Source: Treponema sp. (lineage in GTDB: Bacteria; Spirochaetota; Spirochaetia; Treponematales; Breznakiellaceae). Taken from it: 60,864 nucleotides of DNA. The position numbers were made by a program, and so were the translations under genes. The notes under the pieces were generated by a model, which was not told the origin of the DNA, did no database searches, and worked only from the letters and a program-made list of their open reading frames with translations. Every line of letters starts with the position of its first letter. The stretch's first letter is position 1. Location of the stretch: contig JAISSH010000064.1 of NCBI GenBank assembly GCA_031273265.1, positions 1 to 60,864 of the forward strand, read 5' to 3'. Shown here piece by piece: positions 5,461 through 12,959 of this stretch.

Positions 5461-5733
5461 ATGGGAACAAGCAAACGCGCCCGTAAGGGCGTTGACGAAA
5501 CAATGCGCCACGTTCCGGCGCAAGAAAACTCGCTGCCTACAGTAAATATAGACCGCATTTATGCGGGCGTGCGCGCCGCGGAAGCCAAAGTCAAACCAGT
5601 GCAACCCACGGAGATAAGAGACAAAAAAATTGCCCGCGAAGTCATTGAGCAGATTCGTAAACCCATACCTGCTTCGGTGTATCGGCGAAACAGGGAACTT
5701 GCCGACTTAATCGGCAAAATGACCATGAAATGA
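5461..5733 (+). CDS. Small basic protein, putative antitoxin
   Basis: 90 aa; ATGA overlap with the downstream GNAT; own promoter. Confidence 0.6.
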   Translation: MGTSKRARKGVDETMRHVPAQENSLPTVNIDRIYAGVRAAEAKVKPVQPTEIRDKKIAREVIEQIRKPIPASVYRRNRELADLIGKMTMK

Positions 5734-6290
5734 GCATCCGCCTTAAAATAACTACAAAAAATGTGAGAGACTATTTTTTTCTTGAAAAACTCACTCCTGA
5801 AAAACCGTCTTTTTTATTTAAATGTTCTATTGAAGAATACAATGATTACCTTTTTCATGACGCAATCCGTTCACTCAAAGACCATATCGCAAAAACATGG
5901 CTGCTCTGCGAACATAAAACCGGAAAAATCGCGGCGTATATGTCGCTCATCATGGACGCAATCAAGCTGTCAATGACCGAAAAAGAACTTCACGGTCTCA
6001 ATTACCCATTTAAGACAATACCAGCCATGAAGATAGCCAAACTTGCGGTTGACGGCGGTTTTTCAGAAAGATACAAAGGCATAGGCTCTTTTATGATAAA
6101 CGCCGCTATCGGTAAGGCTTTCGACTGCAACGAAGATTATTGCGCCGCCCGTTTCTTGACAGTAGACGCTGACATAGAACACGATAAAGGCGTACTTGTC
6201 TTTTATGAAAAAAATGGCTTTACCCCCAATGCCGAACTCTCAAATAAAAACCGAAAAACAATCAGCATGAGGAAAGACCTATACAAGTAG
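5730..6290 (+). CDS. GNAT acetyltransferase resembling TacT/AtaT-type toxins
   Basis: FKC..EEYNDYL, IPAMKIAKLAVD, YKGIGSFMI, FLTVDA and FYEKNGF motifs. Confidence 0.8.
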   Translation: MSIRLKITTKNVRDYFFLEKLTPEKPSFLFKCSIEEYNDYLFHDAIRSLKDHIAKTWLLCEHKTGKIAAYMSLIMDAIKLSMTEKELHGLNYPFKTIPAMKIAKLAVDGGFSERYKGIGSFMINAAIGKAFDCNEDYCAARFLTVDADIEHDKGVLVFYEKNGFTPNAELSNKNRKTISMRKDLYK

Positions 6291-6415: not shown

Positions 6416-6454
6416 AAAAAAAAGCGGGCGGCGCTATGGGCTAACGCCGCCCGC
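6416..6454 (-). terminator. Intrinsic terminator of the surface-protein operon
   Basis: Perfect 10-bp stem GCGGGCGGCG/CGCCGCCCGC with an 11-nt loop, followed by T8 on the minus strand. Confidence 0.85.
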
Positions 6455-6506: not shown

Positions 6507-8135
6507 CTACGGAACCACCGCAATTCCAAATATGTCATTACTCGAATGTTCGGTTGTATAAGTGAAGACTTTACGTTGTGGAAATGGCTCTGTTAATACC
6601 ATGTATTGGTGATAATAAAGTCCATACACCGAGCTGAGTGCATATGCATCGCCGTCTGAAAAAACAACCGTTGAGGTATCTCCAGCAGGCAGAATGGTTA
6701 CATTCCCTCCCGTATCCCAACGGCAGGAAGATTGACCAAGAATACCATAAAACGCCGGAACGCCATTCTCATCGACTATCGAATTGATACGCCACCCATC
6801 AGCGAAAATCGTTAATGCGCTGTCTCCCATACGCCAATAAAACACCCCATAGCTGCCGTTGCTTTCATAGTCATAGCCATAACTGCCTGCAAAATACACA
6901 TTGCCGTTCACAACCTTTGCATCTCTTATATTATCGTCATACCCCCTTAATAGGCTGATCGCGGTAGCAACCCCGTTTTCATTCCAATAATAACACCCCG
7001 TTGTAGTTTGAAACGGTATATACACATTGCCGTTATGTACGGCAAAGCGTCCGGTGTATCTTTGGGTGTATAAATTTCCAGAGGAAGGGGATAACGTTGT
7101 CAGCTCCCCCGCTCCGGTTCCGCCTGCGATTTTCCAAAGATAAAAAGAAAGGGTGGCGTTGTATTCGGCGCCGAAGCTGCCGGTAATATAAATATCACTG
7201 CCGTCCGCGGCAATGGAGAGGATATTCGCGTTAGGGTTTGAGCCGTTGATAAGGTCTGTTCTTGTGCCGTTTTTCCAGTAACAGAGAAAAGTATTACTGC
7301 CGGTAGAGTAAGACCCGGCTATATACTGATCGCCGTTGGCGTCGTAAATAATGACTCTCGCCGCAGAGCTTTTTGCTCCGGCAGTAGGAACTTCCAGAGG
7401 GAATAATTCCCCGTCTAGCCAGTAACATGCCCTATAGTCATAAGAGCTATCACTGGGCTCTTGATAGAGCCCTACCGCGACAACGGATTTAGTTATAAGT
7501 ATCGGGAAATCTTGCGTGAAGTCTCTGACCAGCAGACCGTTCTCAATGGTCGCGGTTACTACCACTCTCCCCTTTGCCGTCGCCACAAGGGTATTGTCGT
7601 ACATTACCGCGCCGGTTGTCCCCGCGTCTTTTATGCTCCACTTTATTTCCTTATATGATGCGTTGGACGGGATAACCGTGCCGTTTAACACACCGGAAAG
7701 GTCTCCAATCGGCAAGGCTCCCGGAATTCCGATTATCTCCCTGACCGCATAGGGCGCTGAAAGCGAAATGATAATGGAAAAATCCTGAGTGTAATCTGCG
7801 CCTGCTCCCAAGCCGTTCTTGATACGCGCGGTTACGGTTACAGTCCCCTCGTCGTTAGCTGTCAAGCGCGTTCCTTCCACCACCGAGTTAGTTCCGCCAT
7901 CCGCCTTTACCGACCACTCGGCTTTTTTATTGGTAGCGTTTTCAGGTTCTACGGTTCCCGACAGGGATATTGCAATGTACGGCACGCTGACGTCAGGTAT
8001 TCCGCTTATGCTTTCAACAGGGACGAATTCGCCCCCGCCGTCCTCCGGTCTTTCATCAAAGCCGAAACAGGCGGTAAACAAAACCGCTGTTACAGCAAGC
8101 GCGGCAATACAAAAATATTTAACTATACTTTTCAT
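6507..8135 (-). CDS. Lipoprotein with two tandem bacterial Ig-like (Big_2-like) domains and a beta-rich C-terminal domain
   Basis: Signal peptide ending LFTAC; two repeats of GTV.P.NA..K...WS.K..G.T....L.A...G.V.VTA.I.NG; CYW(L/K)(D/N)G repeats. Confidence 0.8.
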   Translation of the reverse strand: MKSIVKYFCIAALAVTAVLFTACFGFDERPEDGGGEFVPVESISGIPDVSVPYIAISLSGTVEPENATNKKAEWSVKADGGTNSVVEGTRLTANDEGTVTVTARIKNGLGAGADYTQDFSIIISLSAPYAVREIIGIPGALPIGDLSGVLNGTVIPSNASYKEIKWSIKDAGTTGAVMYDNTLVATAKGRVVVTATIENGLLVRDFTQDFPILITKSVVAVGLYQEPSDSSYDYRACYWLDGELFPLEVPTAGAKSSAARVIIYDANGDQYIAGSYSTGSNTFLCYWKNGTRTDLINGSNPNANILSIAADGSDIYITGSFGAEYNATLSFYLWKIAGGTGAGELTTLSPSSGNLYTQRYTGRFAVHNGNVYIPFQTTTGCYYWNENGVATAISLLRGYDDNIRDAKVVNGNVYFAGSYGYDYESNGSYGVFYWRMGDSALTIFADGWRINSIVDENGVPAFYGILGQSSCRWDTGGNVTILPAGDTSTVVFSDGDAYALSSVYGLYYHQYMVLTEPFPQRKVFTYTTEHSSNDIFGIAVVP

Positions 8136-8146
8136 AAAACCCTCCT

Positions 8147-9025
8147 TTACTCGCTATCTACAGGTTCGCTTTCCGATTCGCCGTTCTTATTTTTTTTCAG
8201 GGCAAACGTAACTTTGGCGGTTAGGCTGACGCGGTGCACCGGCTCGATGTTCTGCCCCAGCACATGGACGTTGTACTTCAGGTACGTCTCAAACTTATGA
8301 GAGAAGCTCGGCGGAAGAAACTTCGCGCCTACATACAGCCCGGTCGATAAAAAATACTGAGACGTAGCGTACTCGTCGCTGGCGTTCATGTAAGGAGCGC
8401 AGAAAAACCTTAAGGGCAGTCCCGCTTTCAATATCACGTCCTTCCCCTCTAACGGATACTCAAAATGCCCTTCAAGTTCCCATGTATAGTCGTGATAATG
8501 GCGTACCCAGTCGCGGTATTCGGCTAAATTGTCGCTTTGATACTGCGGAGGGTAAAAAACATTCTCAAAATAAAGGTCAAGATAAAAATAACGGTGTATT
8601 AAGACATCGAAGTAAAGACGGTAAGCCCAGCCCCATAACTTTTGATCCTGATCCAATAAGTCCGGTTCTGAGCCGACTACGGGCGGGATAAGTACCCCCA
8701 ATGCGGCTGACACTCTGAACAGTTTGTCCAGCTTGTCAGAAGACAGCAATGCGCCCTCTCCCAAAACATAGCCCTTTGCGCCTATATACAAACTTCCCAA
8801 GCCGATGTCGGGGTGTTTTTTAAGCCCGCTTGTCCACATCGCCTGTATGTTGAACCAGTCCGAAGTGGCGAATTCAACTCCGAGACTCCAACTGACAAGG
8901 TGGGTTCCGATATTGTGGCTGTCGGTAAAACGAAGCTCCCCTTCGGGAAGGATCGACGCTTCTTCGCCGTAAGCCGCCCCCGCCAAAACGCACAACGCAG
9001 CAAAAACACTAAATAATTTACGCAT
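8147..9025 (-). CDS. Exported protein, possible outer-membrane beta-barrel
   Basis: Signal peptide (..AGAAYG), alternating aromatic/hydrophobic strands, AGGAG-type SD. Confidence 0.6.
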   Translation of the reverse strand: MRKLFSVFAALCVLAGAAYGEEASILPEGELRFTDSHNIGTHLVSWSLGVEFATSDWFNIQAMWTSGLKKHPDIGLGSLYIGAKGYVLGEGALLSSDKLDKLFRVSAALGVLIPPVVGSEPDLLDQDQKLWGWAYRLYFDVLIHRYFYLDLYFENVFYPPQYQSDNLAEYRDWVRHYHDYTWELEGHFEYPLEGKDVILKAGLPLRFFCAPYMNASDEYATSQYFLSTGLYVGAKFLPPSFSHKFETYLKYNVHVLGQNIEPVHRVSLTAKVTFALKKNKNGESESEPVDSE

Positions 9026-9045: not shown

Positions 9046-9678
9046 TTAAAAATTAAACCAGTGACCGATCATCAACCCTCCGCTGAACAGAAAGGGGTAG
9101 CCGGTCCTGATAAACGGCTCAAGATAAAAACCCCTCAGGGGGCTTATAATAAATTCGTTGTGAAAAAAGAAACGGAAGCCCGCGACAAAGTCAAAGGTGA
9201 AGCTGTTTTTTCTCCGTTCTTCCTCGATGTAATAAACCGCGCCGAAACCGAACTGGGTGAAAAGCGCGGCGTTAAAAGACGGGTTGTTCAGCACGTAAGG
9301 AGTGTAGAACCTGATGTGACCAAGCACCTCTGTCGCGGTAACGGTGTTGCCGTCGTTGTGCAGGGCGGCGCGGAGACCCAGCGCGATAATTTGGGAAAGG
9401 TAGCGGTCTATGGTGACGCCGTAGCCTGTTTCAACGTTTTCCCTTGTGTTCCCTCCCGTTTCAAAACTCGCGCCCAGCGACCATGGGAAATCCCTCCACA
9501 CGTGGAACTCGTCTAAAGGGAGAACAATGCTTGCTTTACGCGCGAGGTTGGACGGCTTTCCCGGATTTTCCTGAGAGGATTGTTCTTCTTGCGGTTGTGG
9601 GTTTTCTTCCTGCGCGAACAGAGCGCCCCCGAAAGCAAACAACAATACGCTAATTGCGCCTAACAAAAGTTTTTTCAT
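9046..9678 (-). CDS. Exported protein, probable small outer-membrane beta-barrel
   Basis: Signal peptide (..GALFA), amphipathic strands, FYLEPFIRTGYP, C-terminal Phe (GHWFNF). Confidence 0.7.
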   Translation of the reverse strand: MKKLLLGAISVLLFAFGGALFAQEENPQPQEEQSSQENPGKPSNLARKASIVLPLDEFHVWRDFPWSLGASFETGGNTRENVETGYGVTIDRYLSQIIALGLRAALHNDGNTVTATEVLGHIRFYTPYVLNNPSFNAALFTQFGFGAVYYIEEERRKNSFTFDFVAGFRFFFHNEFIISPLRGFYLEPFIRTGYPFLFSGGLMIGHWFNF

Positions 9679-9687
9679 TATTCCTCC

Positions 9688-11292
9688 TCAATCCCTGTTC
9701 CGCGCGAGACGGAAACCGACAAAAGCAGTATCAAAAGCGTAGGCCTCATGGGCCGCGTTCGACTCCACTCTAGAAAGATCATCCTTATCATAACTGTAAA
9801 AATCATTTCCTAAGTTATAAACCTCCTCAAATTGTTGTTGTTCGGAAGGCCAGTCTATCCAATGACGTACCATGCCCATCATGTCGTATAACTCACTGCC
9901 GTTGGGAAGGACGACGGGAATCATTCTCCCGACCTCTCCCGTTTGTGCATAGGCTTCCGGTGAGAACGCCCATAAATATTTACCCAGTTCATTCAGATCA
10001 TCAATATCTGTACCGGGCCATCTATAATCCCAGTGGGCTCCGCCGGGGTTTGCGCCTTTCGCCGCGTAATACCATTCCTGAATGGTGGGCAGGCGATAGC
10101 CGTTATATCCAGCCGTTTCTACTGCGTCATAATCAATCAATTCATCAACTGCATCACGGCTGTCCCTCAGCGGCTCTCCGTTGGTATCCCGGTATACCGG
10201 TTCTAACCCGTCCATTTCGCTGTACGCGTTGCACCAAACAACAGCCTCGCGCCAGCCGAGCAGCGTTACCGGGTGCAGTTGGTTTCCAATGGACCGCGGA
10301 TATAAGTTGGTATATCGCGACCCCCCTTGGTTTCCCTTACGGGCAAAACCGTAGTTCACGGCTTCTGCGTGATCCCAGACGATCTTCCACAGTTCCCATG
10401 TTACCGGGCACTGCCCCATTAAAAAGCCGGGCGTGCTAAAATCGCCTAATAATTGATATGTATTGTATTTACCGGTGCCCCAAGCAGAAGAGCTTACATT
10501 TCCTGCCGGAATGGATACCATTGCAATGCTCTTTGGATACAGTTCATTTTTATTTAAGAATGTTACCTTACAGGGAACGCTTTCCGTTACGGCGGCTCTT
10601 CCGCCAATGGTGTTGGTTATCTCAACATAGTAGTACACCGTCCGCGCCGACAGAGTTTCGCCTCTCTGCATAGTGTAAGTATCGCCGGTCGCTCCGCTTA
10701 ACAGCGAACCGCCCCTGCTGGTGTTTTGGTCGTTCACATACCATTGATAGCTCAAGGTTCCGCCTTGAGGCGGAAGATCAGCCGTTACCTTAATTTTAGG
10801 AATTACTCCGCTGCCGATAAAGAACGCACCTATCCTCGGCTCTACCCATATTTGTATGTTTCTCGCCACCGCGTTAGGTTCTCCCCTTACGACGGTCAGT
10901 CGGTAATCGGCTCTTTCCATGTGTTTAATCTGAACCGTCAGGTGTATCGTTTTGTCCGCGTCGCCGATGAAGTCAAACTCCAATCCGGTTTCGCCGTCGT
11001 TTATGCACACTGCTGAAACGGTCGCTTCTTCTTCAGTTCCGGCGTATATCGAAAAACGGTTTGCGTCTTTGGCGACGTACACCGTGTAGTCAAAGACGGA
11101 ATTACTGAAAGCGGGGGAAAGCGACGTTCCTCCTGCCAGCACAATCTCGTCGGCATAGGCGGTTATCTCCAGAAAATCCAGTTCTGAAGGGGCTCTGAGA
11201 ATGCCGATGACCTGCTGGTTTTCGTCGCATGAAGTGAGCGCGAAAAGCGCAAGAATGCATGCGAACGCGAGTAAATTGAGGCGTTTTTTCAT
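9688..11292 (-). CDS. Lipoprotein with cadherin-like beta-sandwich, Ig-like and FGE/sulfatase-modifying-factor (C-type-lectin fold) domains
   Basis: Lipobox LTSC; LSPAF....DYTV; LSYQWY; HPVT..WREAVVWCNAYSE..GLEPVY, GYRLPT..EW.YAA.G, LYDM.G, VGFRLAR. Confidence 0.85.
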   Translation of the reverse strand: MKKRLNLLAFACILALFALTSCDENQQVIGILRAPSELDFLEITAYADEIVLAGGTSLSPAFSNSVFDYTVYVAKDANRFSIYAGTEEEATVSAVCINDGETGLEFDFIGDADKTIHLTVQIKHMERADYRLTVVRGEPNAVARNIQIWVEPRIGAFFIGSGVIPKIKVTADLPPQGGTLSYQWYVNDQNTSRGGSLLSGATGDTYTMQRGETLSARTVYYYVEITNTIGGRAAVTESVPCKVTFLNKNELYPKSIAMVSIPAGNVSSSAWGTGKYNTYQLLGDFSTPGFLMGQCPVTWELWKIVWDHAEAVNYGFARKGNQGGSRYTNLYPRSIGNQLHPVTLLGWREAVVWCNAYSEMDGLEPVYRDTNGEPLRDSRDAVDELIDYDAVETAGYNGYRLPTIQEWYYAAKGANPGGAHWDYRWPGTDIDDLNELGKYLWAFSPEAYAQTGEVGRMIPVVLPNGSELYDMMGMVRHWIDWPSEQQQFEEVYNLGNDFYSYDKDDLSRVESNAAHEAYAFDTAFVGFRLARNRD

Positions 11293-11478
11293 ATAAGACT
11301 CCTTAAATTGGGTTTGGTGAGGAAATATGATTGATATAGTGATAAATACGCAGTTTTTTGGCGTATTTTAATGGGCGGCTGCCGCTCGGACTGAAGTCCT
11401 CGCGCCGTTTTTGGGTGGTTTTTAAGTTTATTGAGCCTACAACGTTTAGATTTGGTTGATCTACACCGCTTCGCGGTG

Positions 11479-11538
11479 CTATGTTCTGTTGGGGGGGGTA
11501 ATAGCCAGATTTATGGACAAAGATGTTAAATTAGACAT
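11479..11538 (-). CDS. Leader ORF (MSNLTSLSINLAITPPNRT) containing a C8 tract; extendable by slippage
   Basis: ATG at 11538, C8 at 11498-11491, TAG at 11481-11479; C7 or C9 would give 82- or 78-aa ORFs ending at the start or SD of the gene at 11292. Confidence 0.55.
   Translation of the reverse strand: MSNLTSLSINLAITPPNRT
11491..11498. repeat. G8/C8 homopolymer, candidate phase-variation tract
   Basis: GGGGGGGG on the + strand within an AT-rich leader. Confidence 0.75.
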
Positions 11539-11607
11539 TTTTTCTTAAAATACCCCTTTTTGTTGTTTTACGAGATTTTCGCAGTGCGAATACATCCCTC
11601 TGTTTGT

Positions 11608-11637
11608 ATAATATTCCATATCTTGAGAGTTTGTCAA
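11608..11637 (-). promoter_or_regulatory. sigma70-type promoter for the leader and surface operon
   Basis: TTGACA-N18-TATTAT on the minus strand. Confidence 0.65.
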
Positions 11638-11764
11638 GGGTTTTTTTGCAGGGAATTGTTCGCAAAAGACTTCACGCAAAGACGCATTAGCCATATAAGT
11701 CTAGGTTGTAACTTACGATTTTTTGCGTTTTTATGGAAAATTCATGAAAAAAGTCATTTTTTTC

Positions 11765-11794
11765 TTGACAGCACATAAAAAAGGCTAATAAAAT
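11765..11794 (+). promoter_or_regulatory. sigma70-type promoter for the response regulator/kinase operon
   Basis: TTGACA-N18-TAAAAT. Confidence 0.65.
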
Positions 11795-11939
11795 TTACTT
11801 AACGGATCGGCGTACGAGGGTGTATGCGGTTCTTTATAAAAAGTTGTTCTCAGAAGTTTCCCGGCGTGTTTTTAAATCCTTGAAATAGTCGGCACAGGCT
11901 GAGTTGAATTTTTAGTCCAAAAAAGGGGGTTGAGACGCG

Positions 11940-12959
11940 TTGAAGACAATTTTCGTCGTGGATGACAGCGACACCAACCTGTCTATGGCAGAAGTAGCTC
12001 TTGAAAACCAATACCGCGTAATGACAATGCCGTCTGCGGCAAAAATGTTTTCTTTTCTGGAAAAAATCAAACCGGACATGATTATCCTCGATATAGAAAT
12101 GCCCGATATAAGCGGTTTTGCCGCGCTGGAACAGTTGAAGTCCAACGACGATTGGAATGATATTCCGGTGATGTTTCTCACAGGTTATACGGACGCCAAA
12201 GTGGAAGCCAAAGGTTTTGAAATGGGAGCGGTTGATTTTCTTTCAAAGCCGTTTTCTGCGCCCGTGCTTCTGAACCGGATCAAAAATCATCTGGATGTTG
12301 ACGAGATTATCCGCGAGAGGACGGCGCAGCTTAACCGGATGCAGAACAGTATCGTATCTGTTCTGGCGGATATGGTTGAAAACCGCGATAAAGGAACAGG
12401 CGGGCATATTGAACGCACGTCCATATATATAAAAATACTGCTGGAAGCCATGAAAGAACACGGGGTATACGGGGATGAAATTGGCGAGTGGAACGCGGAA
12501 AAGATGATTTCATCCGCGCGTATGCACGATTTGGGAAAAATCATCATTTCAGACATTATTGTAAACAAGCCCGGCAAGCTGACTCCGGAAGAATACGAAA
12601 TTATGAAAACTCACGCTGTCGAAGGGGAGCGCATCATTGATGAAATTATTTCCCGCACCGGCGAGGGGGAATTTTTGCGTAACGCGAAACTGTTTGCCGG
12701 CACTCATCATGAACGCTGGGACGGAAACGGCTACCCGCGCGGGCTTGCGGGCGAAGAAATTCCCCTGCAGGGGCGCATAATGGCGATTGTAGACGTGTAT
12801 GACGCACTTGTTTCCGAACGTCCGTATAAAAAAGCGTTTCCGCACGAAGAAGCGGTGAATATCATCATGGAAAATTCAGGCGCGTTTTATGATCCAAAAA
12901 TAACTGAAATTTTTTATAAGGTAAAAGACCTTTTTAAGGAAGTGAGGTCGAGGTTATAA
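11940..12959 (+). CDS. Response regulator with HD-GYP (cyclic di-GMP phosphodiesterase) domain
   Basis: Receiver VVDD..LDIEMP..FLT..SKP; MHDLGK, HHERWDGNGYPRGL, DVYDAL. Confidence 0.92.
   Translation: MKTIFVVDDSDTNLSMAEVALENQYRVMTMPSAAKMFSFLEKIKPDMIILDIEMPDISGFAALEQLKSNDDWNDIPVMFLTGYTDAKVEAKGFEMGAVDFLSKPFSAPVLLNRIKNHLDVDEIIRERTAQLNRMQNSIVSVLADMVENRDKGTGGHIERTSIYIKILLEAMKEHGVYGDEIGEWNAEKMISSARMHDLGKIIISDIIVNKPGKLTPEEYEIMKTHAVEGERIIDEIISRTGEGEFLRNAKLFAGTHHERWDGNGYPRGLAGEEIPLQGRIMAIVDVYDALVSERPYKKAFPHEEAVNIIMENSGAFYDPKITEIFYKVKDLFKEVRSRL

Follow-up and report, generated by a model that had tools for sequence, protein, structure and literature searches.

Can the length of a single run of cytosines decide whether a bacterial surface operon is expressed? 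The question is raised by the leader of a four-gene operon on the minus strand of the window, by which we mean the whole 60,864-nt stretch of Treponema sp. DNA (family Breznakiellaceae; source genome G000) that was analysed. According to the original prediction, a C8 tract inside a short leader open reading frame (ORF) acts as a slippage switch: depending on its length, ribosomes would either cover the leader and be delivered to the first gene, or leave it bare for termination by Rho or occlusion of the ribosome-binding site (RBS).

Anatomy of the leader and its operon

The locus comprises the following elements, all on the minus strand (SD, Shine–Dalgarno sequence).

11608..11637, minus strand: sigma70-type promoter TTGACA-N18-TATTAT, 11 of 12 consensus matches
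11553..11561, minus strand: G-rich SD of the leader ORF (AAAAAGGGG), 14 nt 5' of the ATG
11479..11538, minus strand: leader ORF in the assembled C8 state, 19 aa, ATG at 11538, stop TAG at 11481-11479; predicted OFF state
11491..11498, minus strand: poly-C tract, C8, inside the leader ORF, ~100 nt downstream of the -10 box
11289..11490, minus strand: post-tract leader, one frame with seven stops and two open frames
11383..11479, minus strand: dispersed two-hairpin repeat in the middle of the leader (hairpins 11479-11463 and 11405-11383)
11303..11348, minus strand: G-free C/U/A-rich stretch, candidate Rho-loading region (0 G and 12 C in 46 nt)
11299..11304, minus strand: SD AAGGAG of gene 1, 6 nt 5' of its ATG
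9688..11292, minus strand: gene 1, 534-aa predicted lipoprotein with a C-terminal FGE-sulfatase-type domain (PF03781, E 6.7e-18); lipobox read from the sequence
9046..9678, minus strand: gene 2, 210-aa exported protein ending in FNF, without a Pfam match
8147..9025, minus strand: gene 3, 292-aa exported protein, without a Pfam match
6507..8135, minus strand: gene 4, 542-aa predicted lipoprotein with an Ig-like Big_2 domain (Pfam)
6416..6454, minus strand: intrinsic-terminator-like hairpin followed by T8 at the operon end, read from the sequence

The proposed promoter, leader ATG, C8 tract and 46-nt G-free stretch with its 12 C's were all reproduced, and transcription is predicted to start near 11601. 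A start 3' of the tract had been named as evidence against the switch; the promoter scan of the minus strand found no promoter-like site there. Promoter-like sites flanking the tract were likewise absent from both strands (the promoter extends to 11608 and the tract begins at 11498), and the reading of the tract as a promoter spacer was rejected on this ground. The caveat attached to the proposal, an SD about 14 nt from the leader ATG, holds as well: spacings of at least 14 nt occurred at 2 of 158 GGGG-type starts of G000, so that leader initiation may be weak, yet a paralogous leader on contig C49 of G000 has the same spacing.

The assembled tract reads into an early stop four codons beyond its end, and this frame (tract lengths of 3n+2) contains stops at 11481, 11463, 11448, 11439, 11430, 11424 and 11370, the seven originally described. 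With C7 or C10 (3n+1) the leader ORF encodes 82 or 83 aa and ends at TGA 11291-11289, in an ATGA overlap with the gene 1 ATG at 11292, and with C6 or C9 (3n) it encodes 77 or 78 aa and ends at TAA 11305-11303 within the TAAGGAG SD. These endings also agreed with the prediction and proved rare by chance: only 14 of 5000 dinucleotide shuffles of the leader kept two frames open to 13 nt or less from the start. Both long frames are intact across ~190 nt. The target's own frame holds the seven stops, and no tract length joins the leader start to gene 1 in frame; since neither long frame is the target frame, the gene 1 protein would never be altered. Whatever the frame, the tract is read as prolines.

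The middle of the leader is occupied by the dispersed two-hairpin repeat, which we take to be REP-like; it had escaped the original prediction and also exists without a poly-C tract. All four repeat copies linked to a tract keep a frame open for at least 100 nt, compared to 5 of 18 tract-free copies, the other 13 closing all frames early; the four tract-linked copies share ancestry, and the fuzzy search pattern admits some poor matches. Copies were located in the window (11479-11383), on contigs C35, C57, C63, C72, C94 and C105 of G000 and at loci L012 and L018, and the repeat is dispersed in the genus. Genome G033 carries it in tandem arrays, and by eye the repeat often lies just past tRNA-like or gene ends.

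The operon genes are separated by gaps of 9, 20 and 11 nt, and all four are intact and carry a signal peptide or lipobox; the product of gene 2 would be outer-membrane-protein-like. A role of template repeats in diversifying the FGE-type domain was rejected, as blastn of its last 300 nt against the genome matched only itself. An Rfam search of 11100-12000 returned nothing at E values up to 1. Elsewhere in the window, at 5461-6290 on the plus strand, a 90-aa ORF overlaps a GNAT-like acetyltransferase ORF (weak Pfam match), a layout similar to that of a GNAT toxin-antitoxin pair.

A family of poly-C leaders

Runs of C or G in G000 number seven of length 8, two of 9, one of 10, none of 11-14 and eight of 15-20. 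Most of the seven exact C8/G8 runs are unrelated to leaders. A scan for C tracts in short ORFs ahead of surface genes, as suggested at the outset, was productive for the long runs: seven of the eight are sense-strand C in leaders (contigs C4, C20, C49, C82, C110, C117 and C127), and six of these seven precede exported-looking targets. The eighth, on contig C118, has by eye the look of a promoter G tract on the opposite strand. Six of the eight lie within 700 nt of a contig end.

The leaders paralogous to that of the window carry tracts of C15, C16 and C20. The closest in its 5' cassette (78% identity) is the one on contig C49, which has a C16 tract and likewise ends in an ATGA overlap, as do leaders on contigs C127 and C67. 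Leaders on contigs C110 and C117 and the metagenome homolog L118 share a post-tract motif, with TAG kept at +9 after the tract in all, and the 3' leader halves differ among these three and the window. The frame homologous to C7/C10 runs into the signal-peptide coding sequence at contig C110, and stops at -8 at contig C117 and at -17 at L118; unlike at the window locus, a tract length exists at contig C110 that joins the leader start in frame with the target. L118 was the one real homolog among four matches of a metagenome pattern scan, and the scan of genome_contigs gave no match. Searches for orthologs of the locus in 218 family genomes yielded only the repeat or paralogous leaders at DNA level and only a shared domain at protein level. 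At C117:14310-14530 the pre-tract segment occurs twice with a degenerate C/A run between the copies, probably an artefact of assembling a long tract.

Pattern searches of 28 family genomes, on whose listed matches the following figures rest, gave at least 201 distinct runs of at least 11 C's, of which 77 passed the filters. Runs were dropped for lack of an SD-led ORF 40-400 nt downstream (58), too little sequence (37), not being the last in a cluster (13) or lying inside ORFs (16). Removing 10 that had been picked on upstream motifs and 6 that were short or duplicate left a test set of 61 leaders, which was compared with 500 shuffles and with length-matched natural leaders of G000. A frame reaching to 45 nt or less from the start was present in 49 of the 61 (shuffles 26.4; natural leaders 33.3), and a frame stopping 15 nt or less after the tract in 54 (33.6 and 36.3); both together were found in 43, as against 12.8 in shuffles (maximum 20 in 500) and 17.6 in natural leaders. 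Among signal-peptide-like targets the combination was found in 28 of 35 (9.8 expected). Start-overlapping stops occurred at 14 loci (3.7 and 5.2), ATGA overlaps at 10 (4.1 in natural controls) and frames fused to the target at 16 (6.0 and 11.4), while many long frames end 20-45 nt before the start. The p-values overstate the case because the loci are related and unevenly sampled, one genome contributing about 11 of the 61.

Upstream of the tract, an SD and start codon open to the tract were present at 25 of 48 intact loci (shuffles 6.9, maximum 16). As assembled, the tracts of these 25 correspond to 7 ON, 14 OFF and 4 intermediate states, long tract lengths from short-read assemblies being unreliable. 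Strand usage among 93 was biased, 50 being C-sense vs. 21 G-sense, and intact cassettes are also present in two single-contig genomes, G216 and G220. Tracts of the class usually measure C11-C25, which makes the C8 of the window a short member.

The stop-codon asymmetry and terminal overlap expected in related genomes were thus enriched in the 61-locus set, and replication was partial. Of 24 runs from G116 and G185 that served as a held-out set, 13 leaders were kept. Reach was again in excess among them (9 vs. 4.3, a value attained in 0 of 1000 shuffles). Early stops, at 7 vs. 7.8, showed no excess, and the two features combined (4 vs. 2.2) were matched by 161 of 1000 shuffles; neither of these replicated. 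In other families of the order nothing was enriched (reach 3 vs. 1.7; 8 kept of 36 tracts), and the tracts there were by eye mostly promoter G tracts or in-frame N-terminal tracts. Taken as a class, the cassettes probably work by frame switching. The feature in the window is real and non-random and belongs to this multi-locus class, its own copy being possibly slow or fixed OFF.

Several further arrangements were noticed among these loci. One sub-family has a conserved pre-tract stretch in which differences fall mainly at third codon positions (386 vs. 193 and 140) and the leader start is in frame in 11 of 13. Its 24 nt read N-S-L-Y-x-N-E-L in the leader frame and also form an inverted repeat or palindrome (L161, L169, L170, L173, L174, L176, L183, L205, L246, L306, L310 and others). 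The motif was picked by eye from the same loci and is absent from the window locus; its role may lie in the peptide, in an RNA hairpin or in the binding of a protein. Divergent back-to-back poly-C tracts occur at L086 (G011:C5) and L019/L022 (G031:C1); at L086 each tract precedes a lipoprotein gene, and the sequence between divergent tracts is garbled in the assemblies. Long G tracts abutting a TATAAT-like box, several with TTGAC upstream, were seen by eye at L364, L367, L370, L382 and L385, and the same layout at L386, L388, L390-L392 and contig C118 of G000; these may reflect phase variation through the promoter spacer, in one single-contig genome at many loci. Genome G099 contains 181 runs of at least 11 C's in 3.6 Mb, and many of those fetched precede non-exported genes.

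How tract length could act on the operon

In our judgement the chances are about even that slippage in the C run forms a heritable on/off switch of the four-gene surface operon, acting through Rho polarity with reinitiation at 3n+1. Replication slippage in C8 would change the post-tract frame, exchanging an immediate stop for a run-on to the lipoprotein start. With 3n+2 C's, as in C8, the ribosome would be released at 11481, leaving ~175 nt of C-rich RNA bare, and Rho would terminate transcription close to the gene 1 start (OFF). At tract lengths of 3n or 3n+1 the ribosome would cover the leader as far as the SD or AUG and block Rho (ON), and at 3n+1 the ATGA overlap would additionally allow reinitiation. 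Being short for its class, the tract at this locus would likely slip only slowly, and the operon is likely OFF in the population that was sampled.

Of the two OFF routes first proposed, that through Rho fared better. The rho gene (TIGR00767) is above cut-off in all 23 genomes searched, including G000. A G-free run of at least 46 nt was found in 1 of 158 control leaders. The C>G skew of the window leader is +0.12; the class, with the tract left out, has a median of +0.042, compared to -0.018 for control leaders and -0.014 for exported-gene controls. Against this, the other five G000 leaders in the test set are barely skewed (-0.01 to +0.06). According to PMC12360218, Rut sites show a C>G bias and little structure, with an optimum of 60-90 nt; the window leader has the skew, a G-free run shorter than this optimum, and the two repeat hairpins. 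G000 has two full-length rho copies (C121:12820-14061 and C115:5241-6482, 90% nucleotide identity) and the other 22 genomes one each; the second copy reflects either duplication or bin contamination (4.6%). No intrinsic terminator was detected in the window leader, the best hairpin with U-tract reaching -2.9 kcal/mol. Terminator-like hairpins passing -9 were present in 18 of 61 class leaders (31 of 183 natural leaders, 20 of 183 shuffles); the long frame reaches the hairpin in all 18, and the other frame stops at least 25 nt before it in 16.

Occlusion of the RBS, the second proposed route, found no support as a class feature. It is possible at this locus, where 11330-11320 can base-pair with the gene 1 SD and AUG in a fold of -7.5 kcal/mol, but the anti-SD duplex is matched by 36% of shuffles, and the RBS opening energy lies at the 45th percentile of 289 controls, the class as a whole not exceeding controls (p 0.62). 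Because the strong SD of gene 1 is not unusually occluded, ribosomes could load there independently of the leader, which also counts against a switch through Rho. The same figures bear on translational coupling alone, in which a leader ribosome would melt this pairing and reinitiate at gene 1, with polarity secondary. The ATGA overlaps, both here and in excess in the class, speak for it, and with the upstream RNA masked, opening the RBS costs about 2 instead of 5.9 kcal/mol and the predicted probability that the AUG is unpaired is 0.28 instead of 0.02. With the pairing so ordinary and so many long frames of the class stopping 20-45 nt short of the start, coupling on its own seems unlikely.

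Somewhat less probable still is that the class is functional but this copy is a locked or relic switch, contracted to C8 and poorly initiated, that rarely or never gates the operon. The original proposal called for length heterogeneity at 11491-11498, and here it found no support: in the likely source run, a termite-gut metagenome, one unbroken contig of depth 92 spans the tract with C8 and no tract indel is listed, in contigs that drop rare variants. The runs listed as containing the window DNA are termite-gut metagenomes, with no RNA run among them. This single allele weighs against an active switch, as does the 14-nt SD spacing, and C8 is short beside the C15-C20 of the paralogs. In three other termite runs, contigs matching the post-tract sequence end in G runs 12-17 nt longer than that of the window. 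Pre-tract contigs of these relatives list substitutions around the leader ATG but none in it, and an extra G at 11552 extends the SD; they may be orthologs or paralogs. Tract length differs between homologous loci; slippage at the window locus is a prediction. Against decay of the locus stand the two intact long frames, a promoter matching 11 of 12 positions, four intact genes and a leader ATG without a listed change in the relatives. Frame switching by tract length held as a class statistic and was not borne out by heterogeneity at this C8 copy.

A tract effect independent of frame, through a variable-length Rho-loading site, pairing with the leader SD (GGGGUA) or a poly-proline pause or slippery site, is improbable. 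It would account for the sense-strand bias towards C and for the prolines in every frame, and the minimum-energy fold does pair the leader SD with the tract start. It leaves the start-reaching frames unexplained, in the test set and in the held-out leaders alike, together with the start overlaps, and GGGGTA combined with TA before the tract was found in only 4 of 14 intact loci. That the frame pattern is a coincidence of an inserted repeat and base composition, with a neutral C8, is very improbable: a dispersed repeat does fill the leader middle and exact C8/G8 runs do occur away from leaders, but most tract-free repeat copies close their frames early, the 5' cassette is homologous to that of a C16 leader, and the class statistics argue against it.

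Returning to slippage with Rho polarity, the points that weigh against it are the accessible SD of gene 1, the missing indel, the failed held-out patterns, the possibly weak initiation and the low skew of the other G000 leaders. A broader reading, which we put forward tentatively and as clearly less probable than the switch at this locus, is that the treponemes of termite guts possess independent stochastic switches all over the genome, in which the C tract supplies the mutations and also forms part of the Rho-loading site. A single portable cassette, made up of a G-rich SD, 10-25 codons and poly-C, would stand ahead of many surface genes; repeat slippage in the upstream ORF would control termination by Rho, and the same cassette could interchangeably deliver intrinsic attenuation, start-codon coupling or in-frame fusion.

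Precedents and consequences

The leader-ORF form of phase variation had been thought undescribed in spirochetes, a claim of novelty that was overstated, as a precedent exists in another bacterium. In Streptococcus gallolyticus, repeat slippage in a leader ORF was shown experimentally to control downstream surface operons, pil1 and pil3: phase variation comes from GCAGA repeats in the leader, whose lengthened versions keep an intrinsic terminator from acting (Danne et al., 2014; PMC3894217). The likeness is close: a simple repeat lies in an upstream leader ORF, an out-of-frame change lengthens the peptide and turns a surface operon on, and promoter and target coding sequence are unaltered in both. 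At the window locus, at sequence level, the transcript leader contains an ORF that has an SD and a start of its own and encloses the repeat, an out-of-frame length change carries the leader across the regulatory region, and the target is a surface-structure operon. The differences are a C homopolymer in place of GCAGA pentamers, many unrelated surface genes per genome rather than two pilus loci, long frames that in many cases overlap the start codon or continue into the coding sequence, and the lack here of the intrinsic terminator on which pil1/pil3 rely, which has counterparts in 18 of 61 class members. In 16 of these 18 the two frames are placed relative to the hairpin as in pil1.

Other known systems share single traits. 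In Treponema pallidum, surface-protein genes also phase-vary by C/G homopolymers, in the form of promoter poly-G tracts of tprL, tprE/G/J and tp0126 (PMC7864442); here the tract lies ~100 nt past the -10 box, with C on the transcribed strand and inside an ORF. By eye, tracts of the promoter type were present in other families of the order as well. A general class of switches has the homopolymer in frame within the 5' coding part of surface genes (PMC11955535, PMC3711429), where slippage likewise shifts the reading frame. The paralog on contig C110 and 16 of 61 class members have this form, whereas the long frames of the window are never the target frame and leave the protein unchanged. Ribosome cover or a DNA change sets the access of Rho to a C>G-rich site in upstream-ORF-dependent attenuation (tnaC, mgtL, corL) and in invertible-DNA switches (Escherichia coli fim, Clostridioides difficile flgB); these respond to a ligand or to DNA inversion, and the part of PMC12360218 consulted describes no case of repeat slippage in an upstream ORF. 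Full-text literature searches, covering mainly openly accessible papers, turned up no poly-C leader-ORF switches in spirochetes. New here are the homopolymer form, the spirochete lineage, the use at multiple loci and, for the locus in the window, the lack of an intrinsic terminator.

If the proposed mechanism is correct, it would extend that of pil1 to a homopolymer and possibly to Rho, and the output of the operon should depend on the remainder left when tract length is divided by 3. Assembly breaks at these genes may find an explanation here as well, six of the eight long tracts of G000 lying so near a contig end. Phase-variable genes of these spirochetes would systematically go unnoticed, their tracts being located outside both promoters and annotated coding sequences. 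A family of termite-gut symbionts would then randomise its surface lipoproteins and outer-membrane proteins combinatorially, and since the host has no adaptive immunity, phage, predation or attachment may be the drivers.
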